Virus record (IMG/VR): IMGVR_UViG_3300017735_000003
Span: 2,291 to 66,290 of that record
DNA: 64,000 bases
Source: a virus
Reading direction: 5' to 3' (one strand)
The notes below the pieces were generated by a model. That model did not search any database. It had not been told where the DNA came from and saw only the letters and a list, made by a program, of their open reading frames with translations. The translations under genes and the position numbers were made by a program. Below, piece by piece: positions 39,906 through 57,600 of the stretch (position 1 is its first letter; every line of letters starts with the position of its first letter).

Positions 39906-41756
39906 ATGGCATTCGCACAAGTTAGTTCCCTAGATTACGCTGATATCAAATCTGCCTTGGTTGATTACCTGAGGCGAAATACTGATTTTACAGATTATGA
40001 CTTTGAAGGATCAACACTGTCTTCTATTGTTGACCTCTTAGCATACAACACTTATTATACTGCCTTCAATACTACGATGGCAGTTAATGAGAGTTTCTTG
40101 TCGTCTGCCTCTCTAAGAGACAATATTGTAAAAGTTGCCAAACAACTTGGATACAGTCCAAAGTCAACAACTTCAGCAACAGCATTTCTTAAATTAAAAG
40201 TTGATTTTAGTAGTGTTGCGGCAGTTGACCAAAGATTAGTGCCATCATTCCTTACTCTCAAGAAGGGTAACTGTTTTATTTCATCAAATCCAGAAAATAG
40301 AAACGAAACATACCAATTTTCTATTTTAGAAGATGTTGTATCTCCGGTAACGAATAATATTGGATATATTTCAAATGTTTCATCGGATCAATTGCAAGTA
40401 ACCGAAGGAATTTACTTAAATTTTAGTTATGTCGTAGATAATACAATTTCCAATCAAAAATTTATCATTCCTACTGCTAATGTAGACACTGAAACCATTA
40501 AAGTAGTAGTAAGAGAAAATGCTGTAGCGTCAAAAACTGAAATTTTCACAAAAGTTGAAAATATCCTTGATGTAACTGCGGTTGATAAAGTATTTTTCGT
40601 CCAAGAGACTGATGATGCCAGATATGAATTAATTTTTGGTGATGATGTGCTGGGGAAGAAAGTTACTGACGGGCAAATTATTGAAGTTTCATATATTGCA
40701 TCATCTGGTAAAGCAGCAAACAAATTAAAGAATTTTGTTTTCTCAGGTGAAATTTATGACGAAGATTTAAACCGAGTTTTGACAGGAATTACAACAACAG
40801 TTGTATCTGGTTCTGAAGGTGGTGATGATATTGAAGACAGTGAAATAATCAGAAAAAATGCTCCTGCATTCTATTCCTCACAAAATAGAGCAGTAACATT
40901 AGAAGATTATAAGGTAATTACTCAAAGACTTTACTCAGCAATTGCTGATATTATTGTATATGGTGGCGAAAGTGAAGAACCACCTGAGTATGGTCGTGTA
41001 AAAATTGCTATCAAACCAAAATTTAGCGATATTTTAAGTAATTCTACTAAAAGAGATATTATTACTAAACTTAAGAAGTATACAGTTGCTTCTGTTACTC
41101 CAATTATTGTTGATCCATCGATTGTTGATGTAGTTTTAAGAACTAAAATTTATTATAGGCAAACTGAAACTAATTTGACATCCGAACAAATTAGAAACGT
41201 TGCAATTCAAAATTTAACTGAATATAGAGATACTAATAATATTAGTAAGTTTGGTGGAGTGATTAGAAAAAGTAAAGTAACTACAGTTATTGATGCTTCC
41301 GAAAGTTCAATTGCAGGTAATGTTACTGATTTTATATTGAGGAAAAAATTAGTACCAGCACTCGGTACTACAGCTCAATACTTGTTATGCTATGTAAATC
41401 AATTCCAAACATCATGTGCTGGAAAAACCACTATCACAAGTTCCAAATTTAGAACTGTAAATTATCCGAATGATGATTCATTCATGGAAAATACTGAGGA
41501 TGGTGCAATTAGAATATATACTATTGATTCTGCTACTGCATCTAAGAAAATTTTAGTTGAAAATGCAGGAACTGTTGATTTTACTAATGGCAAAGTGACT
41601 ATAAATTCAATTCAATTTGTTAGCGGCAGTAATGAAAATGATGAAATTTTTATTAGTGCCATCCCATTTAATGATGATGTGAGTGCAGTGAGAGAAGTAT
41701 ACTTAAATCTCTCAATAGAAGATAGTATTCTCCAGGTATTCCAAGAAACAGCATAA
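39906..41756 (+). CDS. gp6: Baseplate wedge subunit gp6
   Basis: 'FTDYDFEGS..DLLAYNTYY..AKQLGY.P' and 'QNRAVT.EDY'. Confidence 0.95.
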   Translation: MAFAQVSSLDYADIKSALVDYLRRNTDFTDYDFEGSTLSSIVDLLAYNTYYTAFNTTMAVNESFLSSASLRDNIVKVAKQLGYSPKSTTSATAFLKLKVDFSSVAAVDQRLVPSFLTLKKGNCFISSNPENRNETYQFSILEDVVSPVTNNIGYISNVSSDQLQVTEGIYLNFSYVVDNTISNQKFIIPTANVDTETIKVVVRENAVASKTEIFTKVENILDVTAVDKVFFVQETDDARYELIFGDDVLGKKVTDGQIIEVSYIASSGKAANKLKNFVFSGEIYDEDLNRVLTGITTTVVSGSEGGDDIEDSEIIRKNAPAFYSSQNRAVTLEDYKVITQRLYSAIADIIVYGGESEEPPEYGRVKIAIKPKFSDILSNSTKRDIITKLKKYTVASVTPIIVDPSIVDVVLRTKIYYRQTETNLTSEQIRNVAIQNLTEYRDTNNISKFGGVIRKSKVTTVIDASESSIAGNVTDFILRKKLVPALGTTAQYLLCYVNQFQTSCAGKTTITSSKFRTVNYPNDDSFMENTEDGAIRIYTIDSATASKKILVENAGTVDFTNGKVTINSIQFVSGSNENDEIFISAIPFNDDVSAVREVYLNLSIEDSILQVFQETA

Positions 41757-41757
41757 A

Positions 41758-44700
41758 ATGAATTTTAACAAGTTAACTATCTCAGACTTAGTAGATCAGC
41801 AACTACCAGAGTTTGTTGTCAACGAATTTCCTACATTTGTAAAATTCTTTGAGGAATACTATAAATCATTAGAATTATCTGGTGGTCTACTTGATATCAC
41901 CAATAATTTTCTTGATTATAAAAATATTGATAATTTAAGAAAATATAATCTTGTTACTACTTATAAATTACAGCAAGCAATTTCTGCTACTGATGAAACC
42001 ATTGTTTTAGACAGTCTTGATGGACTTCCTTCGGAGAATGGTTTAATTAGCATAGGTGATGAGATTATTCTTTATGAGACCGTCAATTTATCGTCTAGAA
42101 CACTCCTAAATTGTAAAAGAGGATATTCGGCAACAACTAAGTTTGATAGCACTGCTACGACCGTAGAGAGCACTGTAGCAGCATCTCATCAATCAGACGA
42201 TACTGTAACAAATTTATCAAATCTTGTTCTATTTCTTATCTTAAGAAATTACGAACATCAATACCTTGCTGGGTTCCCATTTGAGAATATTTCTTCTAAT
42301 ATTGATAAAGACACCTTACTTAGAAATATTAAAGATTTCTATAATTACAAGGGAACTGATACTTCTATTGAATTTTTATTCAGAGCTTTATTTGACGAAG
42401 AAGTTACAGTAAAATATCCAAAAGATTATGTAATTAAATCTTCTTATTCGGATTTTACTGTTGATGACATTATCAAAGTAGAAGCAATTGAAGGAAACCC
42501 ATATGATCTTATCGGAAATCGATTAAGTCAAAGTGATGCTAGTGGAGTATTGACAAGTAGTGCTGTAATTGATGAAATTTTAATTAATAATATTTCAAAT
42601 TATGCTTCTGCTAATAAAACTGTTTATGAATGTAGATTAAACGTTATCAATCAACAATTTTTTGAAATTCCTAGAGAAACTCTTCTTAGAGGAGTTTTGT
42701 CGTCCACAGATTCTGTAATTACTGTTGATAGTACAATTGGATTTCCTCAGTTAAATGGAATTATCCAAATCGATGATGAAGTTATAACTTATCGATATAA
42801 AACGTTCAATCAATTCATTGATTGTGGAAGAGGTGTTTTTGATACTGTTGCTATTAGTCATGCAAATTTAAGTGATGTTAGAACTACCGAATTTCTTTTT
42901 GGATATGCTGATGGTATAGAACTTGAGTCAAATAAAGTAACTATGAGGTTACTTGGTGTTTCTTCTAGTGTTATTATTAATGATGGCGGTGCTTATTTTG
43001 AGGAAGCTGAAAAAGTAGAGTTATCACTTGATGGGGATATTGATTCGAGGCAACAATTTACAACATGGATTAAAAACGAAACTGGAACTCTCTCAAGTAG
43101 TTCTGATGTTCAGATAAACAATAATGTCAGCACTATTACCACTGAAATATCAAATATTTACAAAGATGAAAATTATGCTTATATTGTCTCGTCTGGACTT
43201 CCCGTACATCCAATCGGAGACTTTATTGGAGTTGGTTTTAATGTAAATAATCAAAATCTTTTAAAAACAATTCCACTTTCGACTGAAAAAAATACTCAAA
43301 CTCAATTTACTGGAAGTAACGCAGTTGGTTTGTTTATTAATGGTGTAGAAGCATTTAGTTCTCAGGATTATGAAGATGTTTCATTCGGCAATATCGAAAG
43401 TGTTGAAATTGTCCAAAAAGGATTTGGTTTCGAGACTGATATTCAACCAGTATTCAGAGTAGCAAATTCTTCCGGCGCTGGGGCTACATTTCATGCAAAT
43501 ATTATAGATGGAAAAGTATTTTCAATATCAGTAGTAGATGGCGGAAATGGATATACTGAAAATCAATCATTAGAAGTTACATATGGATTTGATGCCACTG
43601 CAACAATTGCAAATGATTTAGATATTATTAATGGTTCCATTAGAACAATTACAGTAACTAATCCAGGTCAAGATTATGTTGCCACACCTAATGTAGAAAT
43701 TATTGATAGCACTGGCAAAGGAACGGGAGCTTTCGCTATTGCTGAGGTAACTAATAATCAGTTGACTGGTGTAATTGTTCTCAATGGAGGTGTTGATTAC
43801 AGTGATAAAGATACTATCACTGTGAGGATTGTTTCTAAAGGTACTGGTGTTGTTGCTAATGCTATCGTTAAAAAATGGTCTTTTGATAGAATATTTAAGA
43901 CAAAAAATTCTATTGATATAAATGGTAACTGGACACCTGCACAAACAATTAAATCTGATACCGGTAACGGTTATCTATATCCAAGTAGAAATATTGCGTA
44001 TAATCTTCAATATGCATATCCATCAAATCCAAAACTTCTTAGACATTCGTTATCTGATAACGTCCAGGGTGTAAATGCCAACTATGATGAAAAAACATCT
44101 GGATTTGTTCATTCTCCTATTTTAGGATGGGCATATGATGGAAATCCAATTTATGGTCCTTATGGATATCTTACTCCAACCGTTCCTGCTAATGGTATTT
44201 CTAGACAAACCAGTTCTTATGTATTAAAAACTACTGCAGAAGCTACTAGACCTAACGTAGTAAAATATCCTTTAGGTTCTTTTGTCAATGACTATGAGTT
44301 CATTCAAGGATCTGGAAGTCTTGATATCAATAATGGTCGTTTTTGCATCACTCCAGAATATCCTGATGGAAGATATTGTTACTTCCTTACAGTAGACAGT
44401 TTTGGTTCTGGTGTTTATCCATATATTCTCGGAAAGACATATCATTCTGTTCCGGCAGAAAATAATTTTAATATTGAGTTTAATCAGCAAAACGAAGATA
44501 ACTTACCCAAAGAAGCAAGAAGAATTAGAAGTTCTGCTACTCCAAGTAAAGGTTTTGATGCTATTTTATCAGTATCTAATGTTGAAAGAGGAACTATTGA
44601 TGATTTTGTCGTTTACGAAAGTGAAAATGTATTCAAAGTATTAGATTCTTTGTATATCAACAATGATGACACCGAAGGTTCTAGAGCATTCGGTAGAGTT

Positions 44701-47700
44701 GAATCGGTTAAAGGTGAAAATGTAACTACAGTATCATATCAAGTTTCTTCTGGGTTTACGCATCCTCAATTAACTACAACTAATGGAATTCCTGACAATC
44801 CTTGGCCTGTTGAGATTAGTGCTCCATATTTAATGGCAGCAGGTCTTACATATGATATTACAGTAGAGACCTCAAATCCTCATTTATTATCTGATAATGA
44901 TATAATTACATTAGCATTAAATAGACAAGCATTATCATTAACAAAAACTTTTAAAGTAAGAGTATCTAATTATCAAACTATTAATTATGTAAAACCTGTT
45001 GTTGAGACTACCTTAGTTGTTGATGTTGCTTTCAACCAAACGACCATTAACGTAGATAATTCTAACGATTATAGAGAAAATGATTATTTAAAAGTTAATG
45101 ATGAAATTTTAAAAATTGTTTCGATTGATTATAATTCAGATCAAATTACTGTCGAAAGAACTCAGTTTGGATCTTCACTGAGATTACATGCAGCTACTAA
45201 CAAAGTAGAACTTTACATACCCGATGATCAACCAGATTATAGATTAACTGTAGGGTCGGCAATCACGAGTAGTGGTGTTTCAGGAACAATTTATAGTATC
45301 GACAAAGAAAATTCTGTTATTGAAGTAAGAGTTGGTTCAGGCACACTTACAAATTCAAGTGTTCTTACAGATGCATCTTCGCCAACAGGAAGAACTATTA
45401 ATGTAAGTAGTGTAAGTGATACTAAGATTTATTGGGAATTCGATCCTACTGGAACTGGCAATTATTATGTTCGTGATTTGTCTTTTAGATTAATTAGGGG
45501 AACTGAATATATTTTTGATACTAGTGATGGAAGTATTTTTGGGTACAGTTTAATTTTCTCTGAAGATTCAGCAAATATCAATACTGTCGCAGGTGTAACC
45601 TCTGTTGGAACTCCAGGAACTTCTGGATCATCAGTAACTATCACAAAAGATGCATTGTTGAACTTTGATGTTTCTAGAATATATTATTATGAGCAAAACG
45701 GTCAAATTCTCAATAATAAAACATTTTTATCAGTCCTCACATTTCCTGATGGTGTTAAAAAAATTAAAGTGGTTGATGACAATAGGTTTAAGTTCACTAT
45801 TCCTATACAACCCGAACAGACTAGTTACACAAATTTAGTTTCATACAGCACAACTTCACAAACTAGTATTGGTGCAATTAATACTGTCACGGTAGTTGAT
45901 GGGGGTGAAGGTTATAAAAAACTGCCAAATATTTCTGGAGTTATTCATACAGAATTAGATTCAGCAAAATTGGCATATTCAATTACTGGAGGTGCATTCA
46001 ATGACACATTCAGTGTTTTAAATCCCGGAAATAGATATTCAAATAATACAAAAATTATTGTCAATACTCTCACTGGTAGTGGAGCAGTTTTAACACCAAC
46101 GATTGTGGGTGGTAAAATTATTTCAGTAAAGGTTACTGTTGCTGGTAACGGATATGATGAGAATGATACTATCTCAATAATTGATACTGGTGCTAAAATT
46201 TTCCCAGTCAGTGATAGTATTGGCAAAATTAAAACAATTAGATTTAATAATAGTGGAAGTCAGTTTAATCCTGATAGAACATTTTCTAAATCTTTAGTAT
46301 TCAAACAAAAAATAATTATTACTGGTATTTCTGGTGGTACTTATAAACTTTCTGAAAATGTAACATCTTCTGGTGGATTATCTGCTAAAATTGACAAAAT
46401 AAGACAAATTGGTGTTGATGTTTTCTTACTTGATTTAAAAATCAACTCAGGAATTCCTAGAGTAGGTGATACTATCACGGGTTCTATTTTACAGGTAACA
46501 TCTACAATTTATTCTGTAACAAATCCCGATATTATTGGAAGTATTTCTGGATTTATCTCAAAAGTTGGTTTCTTTGATTCTGATTTAGGTAAGATTAGTG
46601 CTTCATCGCAAAAAATTACTGATAGTTATTACTATCAAGATTTCTCCTATGTCATCAGAAGTACAAAATCTCTAAGTGATTATAAAAAATATGTTGATGA
46701 AACAACACATCCACTTGGATTTAAATTATTTGGTGAAGTATCTGTAGAGAATGATGTTGACTTTGATGATACTGTAACAGGAAATCCATTTAGTATCGGT
46801 CTTGCTGACGATCATTCTGCTAATGAAGTTATTATTACATTACCTAATGTAAATGTAGAATCGGATATTGTTTTCAAAAAATATGAAATTTCTAGACTTA
46901 ATACAGTTAATATAAAAGCTTATCGTGGTATAGGAGCTGCTCGTCTTAATTTCTTAGATAACCAAATTGAAGCAGTGCAAATGGCAGATCTTTCTGCAGA
47001 ACTTAATGCTAGTACTCAAACATATACCTTGACTACACAGGATGGTAATTTCCCATTAGATACATCCAATACTTCTATTCTTCTTTCATTGAATGATGTA
47101 TTCCAAGAACCATTCCAAACATCTACTGTAACTGGAATTAGTTACTCTGGTGGAATTGCGACTATTACTACTGCCGCAGATCATAATTTAGCAACTACAT
47201 TAGTAGGTCAAACATATCCAAATCAAAAATATATTCATATTTCTGGTGTAACCAATACTGGCAATTTAAATTTTAACGATCAGTTTGAAGTATATGATGT
47301 GCCATCAACAACTACAATCAGAGTTGTGTTTAATAACCCCAATGGTTATCTAACAAATAATGATCCTGCAGTTTGTGCTGATGTCAAGTCAACCATTGAT
47401 AATTTAGTTAGTATTTTAACATATTATTTAAATAATCCATCTGCTGCACTACCCACAAATAACACAGGCGTTTGGTTGGATGAAGCATCATCAACCGTTG
47501 TTAGTGCTAATAGACACAGAGATGGTGCTAATTTAATTGATATCAATAGATTTGAAATTATTGATAGAGCTAATGCAGAAATTTCTTTACAGTATCCTGA
47601 TTTTTACTATCCAAATGATACTCAAACATCTGGATATAGCAGACAGAAAGATTCTTATAGATTAATTCAGCAAAACCGTAAAGAATTAATTGATAGAGGT

Positions 47701-50700
47701 GCTGCTGAAATTGCAGTTCAGTATCCTGATTTTGTATATCCTGGTGATCCTGCTAATGCAAGTGATTATCGCTTCAAGGATGCTTACAGACTAATTCAGC
47801 AGAATAGAACTGAGATTATTGATAATGCATATGCTGTAGTAGCAGCAAATCCTCCTGTTCCAGCTCCGGCTGATCTTGAGAACAAATGTAAGCGTGATAT
47901 TGGATTATTCATTGATTATACATCAATTGATCTTGTCAATGGTGGTAATGAGTATGCGCGTAAGTTTGCCCTTCAGTATTTTGATGATGCTGGAAATCCT
48001 CTCACAAATGGATTACTTAATGAGGAAGTAGCATCAGTTGCTGCATTTACTTCTGCTAAGGATAATATGATCCTTGCGTTTACTAATCAACTTACAATTA
48101 CTGATACTACAATCACTGTAGATCCTAATGGTTGTGCTAACGTAACATCTGCTATTACAGTTCTTGCTGGTATTGTAAATGATGCTATCACAGCAGGATC
48201 TACTGCTGGTCTTCCAACAGAAACTATCGGTGCTGATACTACTGGTGAAGCAAAATGTAAGCGCGACCTTGGATTGTTTATTGATGCCGTATCACTAGAT
48301 GTTCATACTGGCGGTAATGTATATGCTGTTAAATTCCTCAAAAAATATTTTAACGCTCAAGGAACATCATTTATCTCAAATGGTCTTTCCGGTGAAGTTC
48401 TAGAATCTAATACTGCATTCAATAAAGTAAGAGATTTGATGAAGCAAGCAATTGTAAATCAACTTCTTGTTAAGGATCTTACTATTACTAACGGTAATGC
48501 TAGTTACTGGGGGGATGCAGTCGGAACACCAACAGATGTCACGTATGATGCTAATACTGGCGTCTCAGTTATCACGATTGCTAATCATGGATTGTCTAAT
48601 GGTGAAGAGGTCAAGATTAGAGATAATGGTCTGACATTTACCTGTGAAATGGATGGGAATGTTAAAGAAAAATCTTATCCAAGACTTCTTGATGGTAATT
48701 CAAATACAGCAATGCCTGTTTCTAATGTTACTACAGATACATTTGAAATCAATGTTGGTACTTCACCAATTGTAAATTTCAATGTCAGTGATGCTACTTA
48801 TACTCCTTCCACTGGAGATGTTGAGATTAATATTGGTACTCACTCATTACGCGCAGGAACATCTATTAAACTTGCTGACGAAGCACTTACGTTCACCTGT
48901 GATTTTGACAACAATCAAACTCAGCATAGTTACCCCAAGACTGCTATCTTAAGTGAAACTGTCACAGATGCATCTTATGATCCAATACTTGGTGTTCTCA
49001 CTGTTACTGTTAAAAATCATGGATGGGAAAACGGAGATCTCGTTAAATTTGATGATGACTCTCTAGTCTTTACTTGTGGAATGGATGGAAATGCTACTAA
49101 CCACCCATACCCTCGTTCTACTGATCCATTCAGTGGTAAGTGGATACCCATTTACGCTGTAACAGGAAATACTTTTAGGGTTGCGGTAGGAGTTTCATCT
49201 AATACTTCTACACATACATTTGTCAGTGCAGTCGAAGACGGATTGAAGAAGAAAAAAGATAAGACATACGATACTGCTGTAAATATTGTCACAGTCACAG
49301 CAGATACAATTACGATCAATGTAGGTAGTTCAACAGATACATCAGCACATACATTTATTTCTGCTGTCCCAAATGCTGTTATTTCTGGTGGTGATTATCA
49401 GCATACATTTATAAGAGCAGTTACTGATGCTATTGTCAAAACACAAGTTAGTTCTCCTGTTTCAAATAACAGTGATGGTGCATGTGCTGACATCAAATCA
49501 AATATTGACACTCTCGTTGAAATTGTAACAGTATACTTAACTCAAGGATCTTTGAATTTTCCAAATCCTCTACCGGCACAATCTGTAAGAGTTCCTTCTG
49601 CTGGCGAAGCAAAATGCAAGAGAGATTTAAGTCTAATTGTTGATGCTGTTATTAGTGATATGAGAACAGGTGGTAATTCCAATATTAGAAGTTCCACTCA
49701 GAAATATTTGGATGGAGCTGCTTTATTGAGTAATGGTCTTGCAGGCGAAGTAGATGAATCTATCACTGCTTTCAATAAGGCAAGGGATCTGATGAAACTT
49801 GCAATTGCAAACCAACTTTATATTCAAGATTTAACTATCTTACCTGATTTCCTTACTACTTCTGGAACCATTGAGGCATCGAGTCTTACCAATTCTGTTT
49901 TTACTGAAGGTCAGTTTGAATATTCTAATTCAATACTTAAACTGTATGAAACTGTAAGAGAAGGAACTGTATTCCATAGTACTTTCTTTAAATTTGTTTC
50001 TGCTGGAGATGATGCTCGATATTCATATAAAGTAAAAAATATCTTGTTTGATGGAGTCAGTACAGATTATCCTTTATATAAAATTAATGGTTCTAATGTT
50101 ACTACAGAAGCAGATGAAAATCTATTAGTGTTTATTGATGGTGTTCTTCAACTTTATGGAGAATCTTATACCATTGATAGAAGTGTAAATCCAAATATAA
50201 TTAAATTTACCCATGTAATAGAAAAAGACAGACACTTCTTCTCTTATACATTCAGTAAATATAAAGTCTTAAATAATTTTGCAGATAAATTTAATTCTAG
50301 TGCAAGATCATTTGAATTTGCGTTTGGAGAAGACAACATTCTTCCTCCAGATGATCATCAAATGTTGGTGATGCTTGATGGTGTTCCTCAAGTAGAGGGA
50401 TCTTCATATAACATTGTTGATAACGTAATTACATTTACTGAAGCACCCACTACAGGGAAAAAATGTTTCGTATTATATTTCTATGGTAAAGTATTTGAGA
50501 AGACTATTTCAATCTGGAATGGTGAAGTATTTGAAAACTTAGAATATATTGGAGATAATAGTCCCGAAGGATGTCAGTATTTAACTAAGGTTGCAAATAC
50601 TGGAGATATTATCAAACCTGGTGATAAAATTAGAATTGATGGAGAATCCGTAAAAGAAATTATTAAAGTTGAAGAAAGGGCACTTGTCAATACTGACAAT

Positions 50701-52986
50701 TTGATTTACACAGCATTAGTATACACCGACAATTCATATATCCGTGGTAAGAATGCTGTTGCTAATGCTGTAATAGATCCTAGTGCTACTACTGTTTCAG
50801 GTGGCAATCCAGTTGGCATTGATGGAACTGTAGGTGTTGAATTTGGAATGGGTATTCCTACAGTATTTGCTCCAGGACCAATTACTGGGATTAATATAAC
50901 AAACCCAGGTCTTGAATATGATGTAGCTCCTATCGTTCTGTTCAAAACAGAATGTGATAATCCAGGAACTGGTGCAGAAGCTATCGCTCAAATTACTAAT
51001 GGTAAAGTAACTAATGTCATTATCACAAATGGCGGTTCTGGATATACAGAACCACCCGAATTAATTTTTGCTAAAAAGTATGAGATCATTAGACCTCATA
51101 CACCATTGTTTATGAGAAATAATACAATTGTTGATATTTCTTTAGCAAGTGCATCATTGCCCGGATTTAACGTCGTAAATGAAAGTGAATTGGAAGATAT
51201 CATTCCTCTAGTTTCAACTCAACTCACCACTTCACACACTAGTGTGCTTGAAATTGAAAATAAGACTAACCGAGATACATCACGTCCTGGACTTTCTTAT
51301 GTTCTGGAGACATTTGATAATAACAAATTCTCTTATGAACCGCGTGATCTTAATGATCCATTAGCATCTTATCTTGGTACTGGTGTTACTATTGAAATGA
51401 TTAACAGATATGCCCCTGCTCTTACAGTTGGTGATTTTACTACTCATAGAGGAGCTACGCAAGGAGCAACTGAACCAAATATTATTAATATCGGACCAGA
51501 AGCGTATATGTCATATGGATTCACACTTCCTAATGGTGCTTCTAGCACAGATACTATAATTGAAATTGATGGCTCAATTAATAATGTTCCTTCCAGCGGA
51601 TTTATTGAACTTGGAGATGAGTTAATTGATGCCGAAAGAATTTCTGGACCAACAACTCCAGGAGTTCAGGCAGTAGTTGATATTACTGGAGTTGGTTATG
51701 TTGATTCAGTAAATGTTTCAAACGCTGGTAGTGGATATGAAACAACTCCAACGGTATCTGTTACATCTCCAAGTGGAACTGATGCTACAATTACTGCTAA
51801 TCTAACAACTTCAGGATCATTTAAGAGATTTGATGTTACTAGTGGTGGTTCCAACTACACTTATCCACCAATCGTTACTTTGGGTGGTGGAATGACTGGT
51901 GTAAGTGCTACTGCTGAGATTACGGCAGGAGTTCTCACAGGAATTTCTCTTGATGGAATAAGTTACAACACTACAAATAGTAATCAAATTTTTGAATTTG
52001 GTAATGGAACTAGTATCGCTCAAAATGGTTCGGGATCTGGATCTACAGGTGGATTTGATATCGGTGGTTCCCATTTGAGATTTGGTGGTGCCAATGGAAC
52101 TAGATTTGCAACATTGAATGCAGTTGATACAACAGATGCTGATACTGTTAGAGTATATGCAATTAGAGGTACTGGTAGTAATGGCGGAGAAACACCAGAT
52201 GTTGTTGGAACAGAAGATTTAGTGCTTCAATACCAAACCACTGCTGTCGGAACAGATCCTGACAATTCATCATGGATTACTCTTGGAATTATTATTGATG
52301 CTGTTCCTAATGGATCAGGCACTGGCGTTCTTGACAACTATGACTTTGATATTTCTTCTACACCAGGAGCAATTAATTCAAATACTTGGTTTAGATTGTA
52401 TCAGGAAGGAAATAGTGGAGCAAACTTTGACCACTATGGCATCCTGAGTGTTTCATTCTTGGATACTAGCACTACCTATACAGATAGCACAGTAACTCTT
52501 TCTAATAATCCTCTTGATACTACTGGTAGTGGAGCAACCGCTGATGTTTATATGAATAAAGAAGTTGCTAGTTTGACATTAACGGATGGTGGTACTGGAT
52601 ATGCTCAGGCAACTACTTATAATCTCGTATTCAGCGGCGGCAATCCAACTTCTACCGCTATTGCTACTGGAGATGCTGTGTTTGAATTTAATATTAGTAT
52701 TGTAAATGCTGGAGAAAGTTATGACACTGCTACTGTGACCTTCACTGGTGGTGGTGGTAGTAATCTGGCAGCACAACTTACTGTTGATCCAAACACCACT
52801 AGAATTAGTAATGCAGTTATTACCAACCAAGGAAGTGGTTACACATCAGTTCCTTCATTCCAAGTCTCCGCTCCAGATGATGTTTGGAATTATAATCACA
52901 TTAAAGTAAAAACACGCGGAGCAAATGGAACGACAGCATCTACACATGCTACTGGAAAATACGCGAGACTCGCTTGGCGAGGGTGA
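41758..52986 (+). CDS. gp7: Giant baseplate wedge protein gp7 with YHYH-type region and nested globin-like/beta-repeat insertions
   Basis: 'QLPEFV..FVKFFEEYY', 'IKDFYNYKGT..FLFRALF', 'HSPILGWAYDGNPIYGPYG', 'DSYYYQDFSYVI..THPLGF'; position between gp6 and gp8. Confidence 0.88.
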   Translation: MNFNKLTISDLVDQQLPEFVVNEFPTFVKFFEEYYKSLELSGGLLDITNNFLDYKNIDNLRKYNLVTTYKLQQAISATDETIVLDSLDGLPSENGLISIGDEIILYETVNLSSRTLLNCKRGYSATTKFDSTATTVESTVAASHQSDDTVTNLSNLVLFLILRNYEHQYLAGFPFENISSNIDKDTLLRNIKDFYNYKGTDTSIEFLFRALFDEEVTVKYPKDYVIKSSYSDFTVDDIIKVEAIEGNPYDLIGNRLSQSDASGVLTSSAVIDEILINNISNYASANKTVYECRLNVINQQFFEIPRETLLRGVLSSTDSVITVDSTIGFPQLNGIIQIDDEVITYRYKTFNQFIDCGRGVFDTVAISHANLSDVRTTEFLFGYADGIELESNKVTMRLLGVSSSVIINDGGAYFEEAEKVELSLDGDIDSRQQFTTWIKNETGTLSSSSDVQINNNVSTITTEISNIYKDENYAYIVSSGLPVHPIGDFIGVGFNVNNQNLLKTIPLSTEKNTQTQFTGSNAVGLFINGVEAFSSQDYEDVSFGNIESVEIVQKGFGFETDIQPVFRVANSSGAGATFHANIIDGKVFSISVVDGGNGYTENQSLEVTYGFDATATIANDLDIINGSIRTITVTNPGQDYVATPNVEIIDSTGKGTGAFAIAEVTNNQLTGVIVLNGGVDYSDKDTITVRIVSKGTGVVANAIVKKWSFDRIFKTKNSIDINGNWTPAQTIKSDTGNGYLYPSRNIAYNLQYAYPSNPKLLRHSLSDNVQGVNANYDEKTSGFVHSPILGWAYDGNPIYGPYGYLTPTVPANGISRQTSSYVLKTTAEATRPNVVKYPLGSFVNDYEFIQGSGSLDINNGRFCITPEYPDGRYCYFLTVDSFGSGVYPYILGKTYHSVPAENNFNIEFNQQNEDNLPKEARRIRSSATPSKGFDAILSVSNVERGTIDDFVVYESENVFKVLDSLYINNDDTEGSRAFGRVESVKGENVTTVSYQVSSGFTHPQLTTTNGIPDNPWPVEISAPYLMAAGLTYDITVETSNPHLLSDNDIITLALNRQALSLTKTFKVRVSNYQTINYVKPVVETTLVVDVAFNQTTINVDNSNDYRENDYLKVNDEILKIVSIDYNSDQITVERTQFGSSLRLHAATNKVELYIPDDQPDYRLTVGSAITSSGVSGTIYSIDKENSVIEVRVGSGTLTNSSVLTDASSPTGRTINVSSVSDTKIYWEFDPTGTGNYYVRDLSFRLIRGTEYIFDTSDGSIFGYSLIFSEDSANINTVAGVTSVGTPGTSGSSVTITKDALLNFDVSRIYYYEQNGQILNNKTFLSVLTFPDGVKKIKVVDDNRFKFTIPIQPEQTSYTNLVSYSTTSQTSIGAINTVTVVDGGEGYKKLPNISGVIHTELDSAKLAYSITGGAFNDTFSVLNPGNRYSNNTKIIVNTLTGSGAVLTPTIVGGKIISVKVTVAGNGYDENDTISIIDTGAKIFPVSDSIGKIKTIRFNNSGSQFNPDRTFSKSLVFKQKIIITGISGGTYKLSENVTSSGGLSAKIDKIRQIGVDVFLLDLKINSGIPRVGDTITGSILQVTSTIYSVTNPDIIGSISGFISKVGFFDSDLGKISASSQKITDSYYYQDFSYVIRSTKSLSDYKKYVDETTHPLGFKLFGEVSVENDVDFDDTVTGNPFSIGLADDHSANEVIITLPNVNVESDIVFKKYEISRLNTVNIKAYRGIGAARLNFLDNQIEAVQMADLSAELNASTQTYTLTTQDGNFPLDTSNTSILLSLNDVFQEPFQTSTVTGISYSGGIATITTAADHNLATTLVGQTYPNQKYIHISGVTNTGNLNFNDQFEVYDVPSTTTIRVVFNNPNGYLTNNDPAVCADVKSTIDNLVSILTYYLNNPSAALPTNNTGVWLDEASSTVVSANRHRDGANLIDINRFEIIDRANAEISLQYPDFYYPNDTQTSGYSRQKDSYRLIQQNRKELIDRGAAEIAVQYPDFVYPGDPANASDYRFKDAYRLIQQNRTEIIDNAYAVVAANPPVPAPADLENKCKRDIGLFIDYTSIDLVNGGNEYARKFALQYFDDAGNPLTNGLLNEEVASVAAFTSAKDNMILAFTNQLTITDTTITVDPNGCANVTSAITVLAGIVNDAITAGSTAGLPTETIGADTTGEAKCKRDLGLFIDAVSLDVHTGGNVYAVKFLKKYFNAQGTSFISNGLSGEVLESNTAFNKVRDLMKQAIVNQLLVKDLTITNGNASYWGDAVGTPTDVTYDANTGVSVITIANHGLSNGEEVKIRDNGLTFTCEMDGNVKEKSYPRLLDGNSNTAMPVSNVTTDTFEINVGTSPIVNFNVSDATYTPSTGDVEINIGTHSLRAGTSIKLADEALTFTCDFDNNQTQHSYPKTAILSETVTDASYDPILGVLTVTVKNHGWENGDLVKFDDDSLVFTCGMDGNATNHPYPRSTDPFSGKWIPIYAVTGNTFRVAVGVSSNTSTHTFVSAVEDGLKKKKDKTYDTAVNIVTVTADTITINVGSSTDTSAHTFISAVPNAVISGGDYQHTFIRAVTDAIVKTQVSSPVSNNSDGACADIKSNIDTLVEIVTVYLTQGSLNFPNPLPAQSVRVPSAGEAKCKRDLSLIVDAVISDMRTGGNSNIRSSTQKYLDGAALLSNGLAGEVDESITAFNKARDLMKLAIANQLYIQDLTILPDFLTTSGTIEASSLTNSVFTEGQFEYSNSILKLYETVREGTVFHSTFFKFVSAGDDARYSYKVKNILFDGVSTDYPLYKINGSNVTTEADENLLVFIDGVLQLYGESYTIDRSVNPNIIKFTHVIEKDRHFFSYTFSKYKVLNNFADKFNSSARSFEFAFGEDNILPPDDHQMLVMLDGVPQVEGSSYNIVDNVITFTEAPTTGKKCFVLYFYGKVFEKTISIWNGEVFENLEYIGDNSPEGCQYLTKVANTGDIIKPGDKIRIDGESVKEIIKVEERALVNTDNLIYTALVYTDNSYIRGKNAVANAVIDPSATTVSGGNPVGIDGTVGVEFGMGIPTVFAPGPITGINITNPGLEYDVAPIVLFKTECDNPGTGAEAIAQITNGKVTNVIITNGGSGYTEPPELIFAKKYEIIRPHTPLFMRNNTIVDISLASASLPGFNVVNESELEDIIPLVSTQLTTSHTSVLEIENKTNRDTSRPGLSYVLETFDNNKFSYEPRDLNDPLASYLGTGVTIEMINRYAPALTVGDFTTHRGATQGATEPNIINIGPEAYMSYGFTLPNGASSTDTIIEIDGSINNVPSSGFIELGDELIDAERISGPTTPGVQAVVDITGVGYVDSVNVSNAGSGYETTPTVSVTSPSGTDATITANLTTSGSFKRFDVTSGGSNYTYPPIVTLGGGMTGVSATAEITAGVLTGISLDGISYNTTNSNQIFEFGNGTSIAQNGSGSGSTGGFDIGGSHLRFGGANGTRFATLNAVDTTDADTVRVYAIRGTGSNGGETPDVVGTEDLVLQYQTTAVGTDPDNSSWITLGIIIDAVPNGSGTGVLDNYDFDISSTPGAINSNTWFRLYQEGNSGANFDHYGILSVSFLDTSTTYTDSTVTLSNNPLDTTGSGATADVYMNKEVASLTLTDGGTGYAQATTYNLVFSGGNPTSTAIATGDAVFEFNISIVNAGESYDTATVTFTGGGGSNLAAQLTVDPNTTRISNAVITNQGSGYTSVPSFQVSAPDDVWNYNHIKVKTRGANGTTASTHATGKYARLAWRG

Positions 52987-52990
52987 TAAA

Positions 52991-52998
52991 TATAAATA
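52991..52998 (+). promoter_or_regulatory. T4-type late promoter
   Basis: TATAAATA upstream of gp8. Confidence 0.85.
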
Positions 52999-53034
52999 AC
53001 ACAAGGAAAACCGTAAACATTAACATTTATAGAA

Positions 53035-54606
53035 ATGCCAGCACTTATTTCTGAACAGTTTAGAATTCATAATGCCCAACAGTTTGAGGAAGCATTTTCT
53101 GAGGCAGCACCCACGAACATGTATTTCTTCATGGGCAGACCCCAAGACTGGGATACCGCTGCTGTAGCTGGTGCGACTTCATATGTCGGTCAAGCTTCAG
53201 GTAGTCAGCACAGTGGATCTTATCTCGCAGCTCCTGATGAGAACAATCCACCCACGCCCATCGATAGTTTCAATTACGAAAAAGAAGTTTTTGATGATAT
53301 GATTTCTCTTAAGAGAATTCAATCGTCAGATGTTAGATTAGTTGTCAATAGATACAACTGGACATCAGGAACGACATATTCAATGTATCGTTCTAACTAC
53401 AGCGCAGACTTCAAGGCAAACTCTGCCGGAGAAAATGCACCTCATATTTACTCAGCGAAATATTATGTTGTAAGTGACTATAAGGTTTACAAGTGTATCT
53501 ACAATGGATCATCACCCGCTAACCCTAATGGTATTGCTTCGACTGTTGCTCCTAGTGGAACTGGAACTACTATTTTCACAACTGCTGATACTTACAAGTG
53601 GAAGTTCCTCTACAGTATCGGAACCGATGATGTAATTAAATTCTTCACAACCTCCTATGCCCCTGTTCCCGCTAACTGGGGCGTCGGAACTGCTGGAGAC
53701 CCTGCTAATGGCGTTGATGTTAAAGCAGCTGCTGTAGACGGTGCTATCGACACTGTAGTGATTAATACTGGTGGTACAGGATATACTGATAATGCTTCAA
53801 CCGGATATACTAACGTCCCCATCCGTGGAGACTGGGCGCAAAACGGAGGTGTTCAAGCACTTGCGACAGTTAAAGTTAGTAGCGGTGCTGTAACTGAAGT
53901 AACAATCACCACTCCTGGATCTGGTTATACTTATGGTTATATCAACGTAAACTCGACTGAAATCTCTGGTATCGGTGCCCCCGGAACAGAAGCAGTTTTA
54001 GAAGTTATCATTCCTCCTGCAGGCGGACACGGATATAACATCTACAAGGAACTTGGCACTAAGCGTGTTATGATCAACTCCAGAGTTCAATATGATGAGA
54101 ATCTTGAGTTCCCTGTTGATACTGATTTCAGAAGAATTGGTGTTCTTCGCAATCCCGAAGAATCTGGTGGTGGTAGTGCTTCTGGTTCTACCTATAATGG
54201 TTTGACTGCTATTAAATTCCCATCTGCAACAGTTGCTTCATTTAATATTGACGAGACTGTAACGCAAACTACAACTGGCGCTACTGGTAAAGTCGTCTCT
54301 TGGGATTCTGCTACTAAAATTCTTAAAGTTTATCAGAGCAGCTACGAGCACATTGTTACTGGCAACCAAGGTGGAGATTTAACTCCTTTCTCAGGTTCAA
54401 ATGCAATCACTGGAGCACTTTCATCATCTGTTGAAACTCCAGACACTACTTACAGTTTGACTACTTCCAATCTAACTTTTGCTAATGGTTATTCAGCGCC
54501 AGAAATTAAAAAATATACTGGTGACATCATTTATGTTGAGAACAGAAGAACTGTTTCTCGTTCTATTGATCAAATTGAAGATGTCAAATTGGTCGTAGAA
54601 TTCTAA
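53035..54606 (+). CDS. gp8: Baseplate wedge subunit gp8
   Basis: 'FRIHNA', 'YKVYKCIYN', 'YKWKFLY', 'YVENR..R..DQIEDVKLVVEF'. Confidence 0.93.
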   Translation: MPALISEQFRIHNAQQFEEAFSEAAPTNMYFFMGRPQDWDTAAVAGATSYVGQASGSQHSGSYLAAPDENNPPTPIDSFNYEKEVFDDMISLKRIQSSDVRLVVNRYNWTSGTTYSMYRSNYSADFKANSAGENAPHIYSAKYYVVSDYKVYKCIYNGSSPANPNGIASTVAPSGTGTTIFTTADTYKWKFLYSIGTDDVIKFFTTSYAPVPANWGVGTAGDPANGVDVKAAAVDGAIDTVVINTGGTGYTDNASTGYTNVPIRGDWAQNGGVQALATVKVSSGAVTEVTITTPGSGYTYGYINVNSTEISGIGAPGTEAVLEVIIPPAGGHGYNIYKELGTKRVMINSRVQYDENLEFPVDTDFRRIGVLRNPEESGGGSASGSTYNGLTAIKFPSATVASFNIDETVTQTTTGATGKVVSWDSATKILKVYQSSYEHIVTGNQGGDLTPFSGSNAITGALSSSVETPDTTYSLTTSNLTFANGYSAPEIKKYTGDIIYVENRRTVSRSIDQIEDVKLVVEF

Positions 54607-54648: not shown

Positions 54649-57600
54649 ATGCCCCAGAGTACTAATCTAAACAAAGCTCCATACTTTGATGATTTTGATC
54701 CGAATAGTAACTTTCATAGAGTTCTTTTCAGACCTGGATACTCAATTCAATCTAGGGAGTTAACAACTCTACAATCTATTCTACAAAATCAAGTCGAAAG
54801 TCTCGCTAAAGCAAACTTTAGGCAGGGATCTGTTGTTGTTCCTGGGGAAGTTATTGTAGATAAACAGTATAGTTATGTAAAGGTAAGTTCCTTTACAAAT
54901 AACTTACAAATTACCGATTATATCGGTAAGAAAATGACGGGTAATATTTCTGGTGTAGTTGCTACGGTATTAAATGCCACAGCTTCCACAACAACAGATT
55001 CTCCTACTTTGTTTGTTAAGTATGAAACTGGTGGTAATAGTAATACTGCAGTTACATTTAGTGAAGGTGAGACCATCACTTCTAATTCACCAGGAGCTCC
55101 TACAGCAATTGTTGGTATTACTGGAAATGTGAAACCTACTCAAAGTGCTGCCATGGGGTATGGCTCTGCTGTTTCAGTTAGAGAAGGTATCTATTTTATC
55201 AATGGATCTTTGGTAAAAAATGAGAATGCTACTATACTTTTAGACAAGTATGGCAATACTCCTACTTATAAAGTAGGTTTCATTGTATCAGAGCAACTTA
55301 TTACTCCAGAAGAGGACTTCTCTCTGCTTGATAACGCTCAAGGTTATTCTAACTATGCTGCTCCTGGCGCTCACAGACTTAAGTTATCTGTAACGTTAGT
55401 AACAAGACCTATTAACTTAGAAGCACAAAAAGATTTTGTAGAGTTACTTCAAGTAAGAAATGGAAATGTCGATGCTACTGTAGATCTTGTTTCTCCTAAT
55501 GCTCTTATTGAAGATATTCTTGCTAGAAGAACATTTGACGAATCCGGTGATTATGTCGTCAAAGAGTTTCTATTAAACTTTAAAGAAAGTTTAGCAACTG
55601 CAGATAATAATGGTGTATACTCTGCAACTCAAGGTGGATCAGAAGATAAATTTGTAGCAGTCATTGAACCTGGAAAGGCATATGTAAAGGGGTATGAAAT
55701 TGAAACTACATCAGTAAGATATGTTGAAATTGATAAAGCAAGAACAACTGAAACACAAGAAAATAATTCACTGAGCCCCGGCGAAGGATCTAATTTTACT
55801 GTAAATAATCTTTTATCATTCCCTGATGTTGAAAGTAAGTCTTCGTCATTGACTGGTACTGGATTACTTAGTACCAATGCATATCAGGAACTTAAATTAT
55901 ATGATAAGTATACTGACGTTGTATTTGGAGAAACAACTGCTAATCTTGACGGCACTGCACCAGAAGCAGAAAATTTCTGGATGGTTACAATCGAGACGTT
56001 ATCTTCTGCAGATGTAGTTGCATTAAATAGCAACTGGAGTAATGGTGCTCTTTCCGGTCAAGTTAGATACTACCAATTAAATGCTTCTTTAACTGAAGCA
56101 GTTGCTATTCTTACGAAACCATCATCAGTTGGATTTAGTATCGGTGAAAATATCACCATGGGGGCTGTTTCAGGAACATTGAAAACAGCAGAAAGACTTA
56201 CGACACCTTATATTGGTATTGGTAAAACTAAATCAGTTAAATTTCTTACTGGAACTTCGCAAAATGGAGTTTATGATAGATCATCACTTTACAAACTTGG
56301 TTTATTTGGTGTAGAATATTTTACTAAAATTTTATGCCAAAATCCACTAAATTTCTCGGTAGGTAAATTTATTACCGGTCAGACAAGTGGTGCTAGAGGT
56401 ATTGTAGAGCAATTACTTACTGATACAAATGAACTAATTTTATCTAGAGTTTCTGGCACTTTCGCTAATGCAGAGACTTTACTTTCAGAACAAGATGGAA
56501 CTACAACCCCATATAATTTCGTAGAACCAAGAGGTTCTTTAGCGTCATTTAAAGTAGTATCTTTTGGTGCTACATATGCGGCAAATACAGATATCACTGC
56601 AATTAATATCAATGGTGTAAATAGACTTACTGAAATTGGTTCTTCAAATATCACTATTTTAAATAATGAAATTAGATCTATTGTGATCACAGATTCTGCA
56701 AGAGCAGCAATAGGAGTATTCACAACTACTCCTACTATAGAAATTGTTGACCCAACTGGAAGTGGATGTGTTGTTTCTGCAGATTTGAATGATAGCACCA
56801 TCGTAAATTATGATTCATCTTTTGTAAAAAGTTTCTTTAACGCTACGACAGGAAATAATTTTGCTGGAGATATTTACAGCAATGATCTTTCATATTATAT
56901 TGATAATGGAGCTACATTTAGTGGCACTGAAGGAAACTATTTTATTACTGCAGACAATCTTGGTTCCAGACCAGATGTAGATCTAGTAAAAGGAGATGTT
57001 ATTGCTGTTGTTGATAATGCTGGTGTTACCAGAAAATATCTAGTAAAATATTCAGTACCTGATGGTGCTGGAGGTTCTGCTAAAATCTTTATCTATGGTG
57101 CTGTTCTTTCAGCATTCTCAACTAAGAAAATTTCTAGAATTCGTTCAAAACTTTCTGGTGCTGAATCCAATACTTTATTATATCCACTACCAAATAAGCA
57201 TGTAAAAACAATGGTGTTGGATCCCGATAACACCAACATTGATTATACCGTACAGCAACAATTCTTAGGAAATCTCGATAGTAGTGGTTCTATCAGTATC
57301 AGTGTAGGAACGAACGAACAGTTCCTTGGATACACATCAGAAAATTATATAATGTCGAACCCAAATACGGGTGAATTACTTGATCTCGGTAATAGTGATC
57401 CCAATAGTCCTAAAGTATCTTTGGGTAATAGTGCTCAAAGTATCACACTTGATCTTGGTGCTACATTTGCTGACATTCCGTTTAAGTTAATTGCTCCTGT
57501 AAGAAAGGCAGATACTTCTCCCAAGACTAAAATTCTCGTAGAAAATCAAGAATACAATGTATCTACAGGATTTTCAGATCCATCAATTCCAATTCAGTAT

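Follow-up and report, generated by a model that had tools for sequence, protein, structure and literature searches.

Phycobiliprotein-like, putatively nested domains in the giant gp7-like baseplate protein of a marine cyanomyovirus, and the question of whether they carry bilins

Phycobiliproteins (PBPs) are known as the antenna proteins of cyanobacteria and algae, and the question raised by the locus described here is whether domains in the baseplate of a virus are genuinely related to them and, if so, whether they could carry pigment there. The domains sit in a giant gp7-like baseplate wedge protein of 3742 aa from IMGVR_UViG_3300017735_000003, a marine cyanobacterial virus (cyanomyovirus), of which a stretch of 64,000 nucleotides, referred to as the window, was analysed. 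The protein, identified from its ORF, its Pfam and PHROG matches and its neighbours, is encoded at 41758..52986 on the + strand, which is also the strand of every feature described within it. A Pfam Baseplate_wedge domain (PF23786) at aa 181-225 scores 33.7 bits against a cut-off of 27, and the ORF matches phrog_2885, a baseplate wedge subunit, with an E-value of 1.8e-240. It is flanked by gp25 (39498-39902), gp6 (39906-41756) and gp8 (53035-54606), neighbours that match phrog_261, phrog_219 and phrog_438. The combination of this domain with the gene order gp25-gp6-gp7-gp8 is that of a T4-type gp7, and the counterpart ORF in P-HM2 is annotated as gp7. The cyanophage protein thus resembles T4 gp7 in its place between gp6 and gp8, its N-terminal Baseplate_wedge domain and its phrog_2885 match, but it is approximately three times as long, and among the inserted domains that it contains outside the Pfam/PHROG core match are YHYH, PBP-fold and beta-repeat domains.

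The original prediction drew attention to a set of motifs in the centre of this protein, all of which are present where they were said to be. KCKRD occurs three times, with its Cys at aa 2044, 2167 and 2620 (codons 47887, 48256 and 49615) and a GG at +18/+19 in each case; CA[DN][VI] is likewise present in three copies, those of Cys1873, Cys2126 and Cys2576 (codons 47374, 48133 and 49483); and there are three “AF....[KR]D.M” (G-type) helices and three upstream “D..RLI..NR.EIID” (B-type) helices. Neither C.[RK]D nor YP[DT]F was present in the eight other large ORFs checked in the window, and the motifs are invariant across 12 related IMG/VR loci. In pairwise BLASTP comparisons the E-G units show 43-59% mutual identity (E 5e-18 to 2e-28), the B-type units show 56-59% (E 1e-11 to 2e-12 for two of the three pairs), and the Cys helices give E-values of 1e-4 to 2e-11 for two of the three pairs. 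The units are clearly internal repeats, with a similarity far beyond chance.

That these repeats are real homologues of PBPs, with the PBP (globin-like) fold, as had been predicted, can be stated with high confidence from the agreement of Pfam, profile searches, HHalign and an AlphaFold model in which the fold is seen for the innermost domain, M1. The gathering cut-off of the phycobiliprotein family PF00502 is 22.2 bits, and it is exceeded by an 855-aa piece of the protein (31.3 bits), by aa 1868-2120 (34.9 bits) and by the whole ORF (22.5 bits); the M1 core on its own falls slightly below it (21.2 bits), and M2 and M3 on their own give no Pfam match, though they are 43-59% identical to the M1 E-G unit. 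The majority of the homologues listed have a precomputed PF00502 match. A 13-sequence profile searched against the PDB retrieved 44 chains at E<=1; PBPs or their derivatives account for 43 of these, with CpcA as the best match (E 0.0033). HHalign gave a probability of 93.8 (E 1.8e-7) against a CpcA alignment and 44.6 (E 2.3e-4) against CpcB. The expected gapless register with alpha-phycocyanin was recovered by both the profile search and HHalign, in which KCKRD falls on CpcA K83-C84-A85-R86-D87 and the longer pattern K-C-x-R-D-I-G...GG on CpcA 83-103; the Cys84-x-Arg86-Asp87 chromophore triad of helix E is present in all three domains. The centre of cyanomyovirus gp7 is accordingly read here as three domains descended from cyanobacterial phycobiliproteins, of which no published description in cyanophages was found in literature searches.

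The innermost domain, predicted at 47760-48220, was delimited by PF00502, HHalign and VIA-align as a complete domain at 47755..48210 (aa 2000-2151), and it consists of AB3 (47761-47856), E1-G1 (47863-48096, with Cys2044) and H1 (48118-48201, with Cys2126). In the structure models it has the globin-type fold of the PBPs. The first AF2 model has a pLDDT of 78.6 and a pTM of 0.80, and the top eight of 48,161 chains aligned to M1 by VIA-align are all PBPs or ApcE (Z 12.9-15.9), including 5aqd_M (Z 15.9, 146 aligned residues, rmsd 4.0), 4xxi_A (Z 14.4) and 8or7_A (Z 14.2), with generic globins scoring lower (Z 6-10). The PBP matches of M1 recur with the 855-aa model, which is mediocre (pLDDT 66, pTM 0.57), and the top rows of a Foldseek search are nearly all PBPs, with every E-value above 1e-3 (e.g. 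0.037). The closest relatives are CpcA by sequence and the beta subunits of phycoerythrin and phycocyanin by structure and by the G-H region; like PBP subunits, the phage domain has helices A/B, E, F', G and H and a “P.F..PG” loop following helix B. There are differences as well. PBP subunits pair into alpha/beta monomers by means of an N-terminal X-Y helix hairpin and build (alpha-beta)3 discs; the PBP structural alignments start at chain residues 21-50, and no helices assignable as X-Y of M1 appear in the model. The region of the F helix seems to be shorter in the model, and a single domain unites features of the alpha and the beta type. The domains are also embedded in a 3742-aa virion protein, probably one within another, rather than forming free subunits of 160-180 aa.

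Because every PBP structural match covers M1 alone, we infer the arrangement of the other two domains from the order of the units, for which unit HMMs give h-a-a-a-E-h-E-[insert]-h-E. The homologues read a^n(Eh)^n, e.g. aaaEhEhEh, aaEhEh or EaaaaaEhEhEhEhEhh, and the three unit counts are equal in 92 of 265 homologous proteins. This order and this pattern suggest that the three domains are probably nested like Russian dolls, each inner one inserted into the B-E loop of the next. The outermost domain would then begin with H0 (47353..47442, with Cys1873; H-unit HMM E 6.7e-17, model helix 3-25), which we propose to be its H helix, shifted to the N-terminal side by circular permutation, followed by AB1 (47500..47604; AB-unit HMM E 4.3e-21, model helices 48-62 and 64-78), a B-type helix pair ending in QYPDF which would supply its A/B helices. 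The A/B helices of the middle domain are proposed to be AB2 (47632..47733; AB-unit HMM E 1.8e-21), a second pair ending in QYPDF, which on its own matches PF00502 profile positions 33-66 (E 0.0095) and has allophycocyanin-B alpha 41-73 as its best single-sequence PDB match. Beyond M1 comes E2-G2 (48232..48468, with Cys2167; EG-unit HMM E 1e-42), comprising the E, F' and G helices of the middle domain, which is 49% identical to E1-G1, is modelled with a pLDDT of 83-92, and matches CpcA 65-104 in the profile search (query 283-321). The middle domain would hold in its G-H loop a beta-rich insert of 330 aa (48469..49458), recognized from its sequence, the model and PHROG; it has three “L.FTC..DGN...YP” repeats, strands at 397-704 of the 855-aa model, a resemblance to E1 FCCH and endosialidase beta-barrel domains (Z 7.7-8.1), and matches to phrog_5342 and phrog_1276. 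H2 (49459..49551, with Cys2576; H-unit HMM E 3.8e-17, helix 716-738 of the 855-aa model) is proposed as the H helix of the middle domain, a pairing taken from the unit order in homologues. The outermost domain would be completed by the E, F' and G helices of E3-G3 (49591..49821, with Cys2620; EG-unit HMM E 5.5e-37), which is 59% identical to E2-G2 and is modelled with helices at 758-780, 784-791 and 808-830 of the 855-aa model. As many as about 30 copies of the domain occur in a single giant structural protein, and gp7 would illustrate strikingly how domains can be inserted into one another again and again.

The second cysteine of each domain was originally likened to the Cys155 site of the beta subunits. 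The phage “DPNG..C” ahead of helix H does align on CpcB “DPNGITPGDC153”, although this pairing comes from a forced global HHalign alignment with a probability of 11.5, which is weak on its own, the local alignment stopping short of the H helix. In the model, helix 260-279, the H helix, starts one residue after Cys2126, which thus occupies its N-cap, and this helix aligns with the last helix of PE-beta (up to residue 278 of the model and 184 of the chain), so that the predicted M1 H helix begins with a Cys at the CpcB Cys153 (“beta-155”) position. Among 1802 E units in 265 proteins the Cys, Arg and Asp of the triad are retained in 99%, 97% and 99%, and the Cys of the H unit in 100% of 627 H units, percentages which are biased upward by the selection of units with HMMs.

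The best overall explanation, to which we assign a probability of about 0.45, is that PBP-derived nested domains of gp7 carry bilin on their conserved Cys and make the baseplate pigmented; that bilin is bound, and that the virion is pigmented or senses light, is put forward as a hypothesis for which the evidence is circumstantial. Attachment of bilin to the conserved Cys, taken by itself, has odds a little short of even. Most likely a thioether-linked bilin (PEB or PCB) would be acquired during assembly in the infected bilin-making cell, either autocatalytically or through host lyases, and in phages that have cpeT the phage T-type lyase CpeT could also serve the beta-155-type site. The baseplate, together with the tail fibres in related phages, would then bear pigment, which might be used for light-gated adsorption. 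This would be the most attractive use, a purely structural use of the fold being nearly as likely, but light-gating itself appears unlikely. Similarly doubtful is the fuller proposal that T4-like cyanophage particles carry bilins covalently on PBP-derived domains of both baseplate and tail fibres, as the long-sought photoreceptor for light-dependent adsorption, with cpeT mainly pigmenting the beta-155-type Cys of the virion and not the host antenna. If the sites are used, such pigmented virions would represent a novel type of virus particle, and two old puzzles, that of cpeT and bilin genes in cyanomyoviruses and that of light-only adsorption, would become directly testable. Pigment and light sensing by a virus particle can now be tested, since the domains are true PBP relatives with the attachment residues kept.

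The distribution of the modules bears on these proposals. A tblastn search found module matches in 267 of 50,697 phage records, all of them cyanophages. The window has no bilin gene, as had been noted, and CpeT or bilin-reductase matches are absent from the entire 66-kb record. Co-occurrence with bilin genes was examined in a hand-picked panel of 20 genomes, with statistics that ignore phylogeny: modules are present in 11 of 12 cpeT-positive and 4 of 8 cpeT-negative genomes, a statistically weak tendency (Fisher one-sided p 0.058; two-sided p 0.109, not significant). Bilin reductases, found in four of the 20 genomes, all Prochlorococcus phages, are unlinked to the modules. S-PM2, S-CAM1, S-RIM44 and G006 each have a giant tail gene with modules and, 0.7-3 kb upstream of it, cpeT; S-CAM7 has cpeT and no module match. 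Passages in two papers call the benefit of cpeT and bilin genes to cyanomyoviruses “unclear” (PMC2984593, PMC10452541). According to statements in a study of adsorption, some cyanophages adsorb only in the light, independently of host photosynthesis, with light needed by P-HM1/P-HM2 and S-PM2 and dark adsorption seen for P-SSM2 and P-SSP7 (PMC6628666); in this comparison of four phages only, module matches number 6 in P-HM2, 13 in S-PM2, and 0 in both P-SSM2 and P-SSP7.

A serious competitor, itself a possible reading, is that the modules derive from a captured PBP gene whose compact helical fold only provides giant baseplate and fibre proteins with a rigid spacer that can be inserted, with Cys, Arg and Asp needed for folding or packing and no bilin bound. 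The high copy number and the acceptance of nested and beta-domain insertions are scaffold-like, and the shortened F-helix region is in keeping with this. The triad could be structural because positions not shared with PBPs (D at +14, Y, N..L) are conserved to the same degree; G001, a close relative (95% complete), and phage B3 have modules yet lack both cpeT and bilin reductase; and no report of coloured or fluorescent cyanophage particles was found in literature searches. A spacer, however, would have no need to keep, at 97-99%, precisely those three residues that contact the chromophore in a domain which otherwise drifts to 25-30% identity, nor would it need the invariant second Cys at the beta-155 position. 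One lone near-invariant Cys per domain is unusual in an extracellular structural protein, and the restriction to phages of bilin-making hosts, with the leaning towards cpeT, is left unexplained. Even without pigment, a protein of host photosynthesis has here clearly been exapted for a structural role in a phage, and the domain could serve as a compact, insertion-tolerant scaffold in fluorescent-protein engineering.

It is considerably less probable that the PBP fold was reused with its bilin site repurposed for other Cys chemistry, such as intermolecular disulfides locking baseplate or fibre subunits in oxidising sea water, or for another ligand or a metal. The medium into which virions mature is indeed oxidising, there are two Cys per nested domain and three further “FTC” Cys in the beta insert, and relatives of the fold take other ligands (heme in globin-coupled sensors, B12 and bilin in photocobilins). 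The Arg and Asp beside the Cys, however, are as conserved as the Cys and are not required for disulfides; in the tandem-type proteins (n=74), 1010 of 1716 Cys lie in C.[RK][DE] motifs, one per domain, so that a partner would have to come from another chain; and the sequence has no metal-type motif. The disulfide between the two Cys that the original prediction offered as an alternative is unlikely, because they occupy the two positions at which PBPs attach bilin, which lie at a distance from each other in PBP structures, and because this large related class has one Cys only. That an unrelated helical repeat merely resembles the PBP E helix by chance or convergence is very improbable, for although the individual E-values against PBPs are modest (0.0033 and 0.037) and all-helical models frequently yield middling Z scores, the four independent lines from Pfam, the PDB profile, HHalign and structure agree, the PBP Z scores lie well above those of generic globins, and the match spans B helix, loop, E helix, G helix and DPNG..C-H helix in PBP order.

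The significance of these domains lies in the occurrence of a PBP fold, multiplied, probably nested and with both pigment-attachment sites kept, in the infection machinery of viruses that kill bilin-making cells. A precedent is the bilin-binding domain of ApcE (4xxi_A), the core-membrane linker, where a PBP domain likewise forms part of a large protein of several domains. In ApcE a loop is inserted between helix B and helix E, the bilin is attached autocatalytically, and the attachment Cys is at a different position. The B-E loop would on this account be a proven insertion point, although in ApcE it is a loop in a single PBP domain and not a whole domain that is inserted, and ApcE belongs to the phycobilisome rather than to a virion; in the two models it ranks second or first among the structural matches (Z 14.4 and 13.5). 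The same fold outside light harvesting, partly in sensing, is found in photocobilins (8j2w_B, 8j2y_B) and globin-coupled/RsbR-type sensor globins. These are cellular signalling proteins for which sequence searches gave no C-x-R-D register match, and their structural scores against M1 (Z 10.7-11.9 for photocobilins and 8-11 for the sensor globins) lie below those of the true PBPs.

The domains in gp7, the giant baseplate protein of this cyanophage, are phycobiliprotein (PBP)-fold domains, members of a known family that phages have exapted and multiplied in their virion proteins, where the copies are probably nested; the observation from which the analysis started is confirmed. The 3742-aa ORF that contains the PBP-like domains (41758-52986, + strand) matches the Pfam model Baseplate_wedge at 33.7 bits (cut-off 27) as well as phrog_2885, "baseplate wedge subunit", and its neighbours match the T4-type baseplate genes gp25 (39498-39902), gp6 (39906-41756) and gp8 (53035-54606), so that it can be identified as a giant gp7, which bears out the original assignment to the baseplate. 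Among isolates, T4-like cyanophages come nearest (57% amino-acid identity to S-CAM1 across the module), and a phage megablast search with the gp7 region gave no match.

The motifs described in the original prediction were all found where it had placed them. The KCKRD cysteines are residues 2044, 2167 and 2620 and those of the CA(D/N)(V/I) helices are residues 1873, 2126 and 2576, and there are also three AF....(K/R)D.M helices and three D..RLI..NR.EIID helices; the motifs are absent from the other large ORFs of the window that were checked. Unit boundaries were set with unit HMMs made from relatives, for the B-type helix pair ("a"), the E, F' and G helices with KCKRD ("E") and the CA(D/N)(V/I) Cys helix ("h"). 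These place an h unit at aa 1866-1895, a units at aa 1915-1949, 1959-1992 and 2002-2033, and then E at aa 2036-2113, h at aa 2121-2148, E at aa 2159-2237, h at aa 2568-2598 and E at aa 2612-2688. The units repeat one another within gp7, and any two E-G units share 43-59% identity (E as low as 2e-28). The 330-aa beta-rich insert between the second E unit and the last h unit (48469-49458, aa 2238-2567) would occupy the G-H loop of the middle domain and contains three repeats of its own, each with "L.FTC..DGN...YP(R/K)"; in the model it is similar to the ubiquitin-E1 FCCH domain and to the phage endosialidase beta-barrel (Z 7.7-8.1).

Several independent tests agree in pointing, at the level of sequence, to homology between gp7 and the phycobiliproteins, and the likeness first proposed is borne out by the Pfam PBP family (PF00502), by a profile search of the PDB and by HHalign alignment to phycocyanin alpha (CpcA). 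Against a cut-off of 22.2 bits, PF00502 reaches 34.9 bits with aa 1868-2120, 31.3 bits with an 855-aa piece and 21.2 bits with the core of the innermost domain, M1 (47755-48210), while the middle and outermost domains, M2 and M3, give no Pfam match when taken singly. The sole single-sequence match in the PDB is allophycocyanin-B alpha (E 0.49), but a 13-row profile, A1, matches 44 PDB sequences at E<=1: a viral VP4 and 43 PBPs or fluorescent proteins derived from PBPs. CpcA ranks first (E 0.0033), with KCKRDIG..GGN aligned on KCARDIG..GGT, and the same CpcA residues are matched by the second module. When the alignment of M1 (A3) is compared with alignments of CpcA and of phycocyanin beta (CpcB) built from the cpcBA loci of cyanobacterial genomes, HHalign gives a probability of 93.8 (E 1.8e-7) across the E helix for CpcA and of 44.6 (E 2.3e-4) across helices B and E for CpcB. 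Both local alignments stop short of the H helix; a forced global alignment to CpcB, with a probability of only 11.5, pairs "TVDPNG-----CANVTSAI" of the phage with "ANDPNGITPGDCSALMSEI" of CpcB and thereby aligns Cys2126 with Cys153, the "beta-155" bilin site. Of the 120 homologues listed, the majority come with a precomputed PF00502 hit, so that the domain is already recognized by public pipelines even though the protein names read "hypothetical". A query of the ESM Atlas with M1 gave no usable match, and no published description of PBP-like domains in cyanophage virion proteins was found in the literature searched.

The AlphaFold2 model of aa 1868-2250, computed with A1, has a pLDDT of 78.6 and a pTM of 0.80. 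Foldseek finds nothing in the PDB at E<=1e-3, and its top rows are nearly all PBP beta subunits (best 5ook_B, E 0.037, target TM 0.61). VIA-align, a structure search independent of Foldseek that covers 48,161 chains, places PBPs or ApcE exclusively at ranks 1-8, among them phycoerythrin beta (PE-beta; 5aqd_M, Z 15.9, 146 residues aligned, rmsd 4.0), ApcE (4xxi_A, Z 14.4), 8or7_A (Z 14.2) and, at rank 8, 1b8d_A (Z 12.9), followed by photocobilins (11.9 and 10.7), sensor globins and RsbR (8-11) and haemoglobins (6-7). Since helical models can reach Z 14 through arrangement alone, the weight rests on this ranking of families and not on the Z value. The PBP matches cover model residues of about 133-284 (aa 2000-2151), which comprise the third B-type pair (AB3), E1, a short F', G1 and the CAN helix as helix H. 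The latter is aligned by VIA-align to the C-terminal helix of PE-beta, and the "CA(D/N)V" helix of the original prediction is therefore helix H; in the model its Cys lies at the helix N-cap, as it does in PBP beta subunits. The 855-aa model is weak (pLDDT 66, pTM 0.57), and a structure search with it gives PBP matches on M1 only. The expected globin-type PBP fold was thus recovered for M1, with no PBP structural match for M2 or M3; homology and fold are established for the innermost domain, and their extension to M2 and M3 follows from the identity between the repeats.

The arrangement of the three domains can be read from the order of units in relatives. A profile run against 1.84 billion representatives matched 879 proteins at E<=1e-3, and 265 proteins, namely those listed from this search, the homologues mentioned above and gp7 itself, were scanned with the three unit HMMs. 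Two classes of unit order emerge. The first is a^n(Eh)^n, with examples such as aaaEhEhEh-E, aaEhEh, EaaaEhEhEh and EaaaaaEhEhEhEhEhh, and with one protein in which ten a units are followed by seven Eh; a, E and h counts are equal in 92 of the 265 proteins, many of which are fragments. This order is what would be predicted if each inner domain were inserted in the B-E loop of the next, so that "Russian-doll" nesting of the gp7 domains appears well supported by comparative unit order. M1 consists of AB3, E1-G1 and H1, as seen in the model; M2 would then be made up of AB2, E2-G2, the 330-aa insert and H2, and M3 of AB1 and E3-G3, its H helix being H0 on the N-terminal side, since the model shows no helix after G3. 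Compact packing would fit the high pTM of the 383-aa model; a two-chain prediction pairing H0-AB1 (A6) with E3-G3 (A7) gave a median of 0.28 against a mark of 0.32, which tells neither for nor against the pairing. In a close relative (genome G001, locus L016; IMG/VR contig of 177,686 bases, 95% complete) the gp7 homologue is interrupted: L016:1078-3111 holds a stop codon, and the module matches occur in two open frames, 2364 and 1169 aa long.

In the second class, E units stand in tandem, as many as 31 of them, and recur about every 135-160 aa, with B-type and H-type helices too diverged for the unit HMMs. It includes P0022, P0024, P0026, P0056, P0093 and similar giant metagenome proteins with no close isolate, in which up to about 30 non-nested copies each have a single Cys in C-x-R-D and an H-type helix without Cys; at its ends, P0093 is similar to tail-fibre proteins of the P-SSM2 type.

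In a tblastn search, the module (aa 1995-2241) was found in 267 of 50,697 phage records, all of them cyanophages (by name, Synechococcus 209, Cyanophage 45, Prochlorococcus 12, Marine 1). The tandem-class protein P0093 matched 375 records, eight of them with non-cyanophage names (Methylophilales 4, Roseobacter 2, Pelagibacter 1, uncultured 1); the match in Melnitz, the only non-cyanophage listed, was rejected, as it covers query residues 29-92, outside the modules, which begin at residue 453. Relatives sought with A1 in 185,579 prokaryote genomes yielded 129 pattern matches, none confirmed; with no more than two peptide patterns in the search, this argues weakly for absence.

Among 1802 E units, the Cys, Arg and Asp of the putative pigment site are conserved at 99%, 97% and 99%, and the Cys of 627 H units at 100%, figures biased upward by the selection of units by HMM; some positions that do not correspond to PBP residues are equally conserved. 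An alternative role for these cysteines, a disulfide between the two Cys of one domain, is unlikely both from PBP geometry and from the tandem class: in 74 such proteins the Cys of C.[RK][DE] accounts for 1010 of 1716 cysteines, about one per domain, so that intradomain disulfides cannot in general explain its retention. The gp7 domains may bind bilin, a hypothesis with circumstantial support.

The original statement that the window holds no bilin gene proved correct, since neither CpeT nor a bilin reductase is found in it or in its IMG/VR source record, although the latter (66,290 bases, 35% complete by CheckV) is too incomplete for this lack to say much. CpeT, the T-type lyase, occurs in two of five related IMG/VR records (71% and 43% complete) and is absent from G001, and bilin reductase occurs in none of the five. 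Of 80 loci in an IMG/VR panel gathered with a gp6 profile, one lay on a contig of at least 150 kb, and only L204 (genome G006) was retained. Co-occurrence was scored in 20 hand-picked genomes, complete or nearly so (G001, G006 and 18 isolates), among which likely negatives were taken from phage matches to P0093, blind to cpeT. The modules are accompanied by cpeT in 11 genomes and occur without it in 4, while genomes without modules have cpeT in 1 case and lack it in 4 (Fisher one-sided p 0.058, two-sided p 0.109, phylogeny uncontrolled); a post-hoc count that takes the single weak matches in S-SKS1 and ACG-2014f as absent gives 11/2/1/6 and p 0.004. Co-occurrence, the test proposed at the outset, leans towards an association for cpeT and shows no link for bilin reductase, which is found in 4 of the 20 genomes, all Prochlorococcus phages and one of them the module-free P-SSM2. 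Four genomes have cpeT 0.7-3 kb upstream of a giant tail or fibre gene that bears the modules: in S-PM2 (LN828717.1, 154417-167723) it ends at 154926 and the giant ORF starts at 156384, in S-CAM1 (KU686192.1, 18277-30947) the positions are 18789 and 19866, in S-RIM44 (NC_047734.1, 20977-34263) 21489 and 22210, and in G006 (46991-53019) cpeT ends at 47440 and the first module is at 50347; the three isolates belong to different genera. A link between cpeT and the modules can accordingly be hypothesized on circumstantial grounds. Passages of PMC2984593 call the benefit of phage bilin genes for Prochlorococcus phages "unclear" and describe P-SSM2 and P-SSM4 as without cpeT, and PMC10452541 gives, for 153 cyanophage genomes, CpeT in 31, PcyA in 16, PebS in 9 and HO in 8, in myoviruses only except for one podovirus with PebS.

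Light-dependent adsorption provides a further lead. Passages of PMC6628666 report no adsorption in the dark by P-HM1 and P-HM2, dark adsorption by P-SSM2 and P-SSP7, and, citing Jia et al. 2010, light-dependent adsorption by S-PM2 that is independent of host photosynthesis. Profile A3 finds 6 module matches in P-HM2, 13 in S-PM2 and none in P-SSM2 or P-SSP7, PF00502 agrees with these counts, and P-SSM2 is matched by P0093 only outside the P0093 modules. With four phages, of which two are otherwise widely separated, the association is a lead and falls short of a test; gp7-type domains could conceivably gate adsorption by light, a hypothesis for which the support is circumstantial.

Other features of the window were recorded. 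Upstream of the PBP-fold region, gp7 contains a YHYH domain (PF14240, E 2.1e-26) at 44095-44397 (aa 780-880). Directly after gp8 lies a giant ORF of 2526 aa and unknown function (phrog_358; 54649-62229), and the stretch 34355-38739 holds a PAAR-like gene and then a 1358-aa protein with a Hoc-like segment. The sole large minus-strand gene, at 30727-32334, is tryptophan-halogenase-like (phrog_2928, E 4e-141) and falls within a region (28000-32000) of raised G+C, 0.43-0.50 versus about 0.35. Host-like metabolic genes at 5717-6049, 15206-16441, 17498-18025, 18987-19631, 19846-20427 and 26307-26933 comprise an S-adenosylmethionine decarboxylase, a CobS-like "porphyrin biosynthesis" ATPase and four 2OG-Fe(II) oxygenases.
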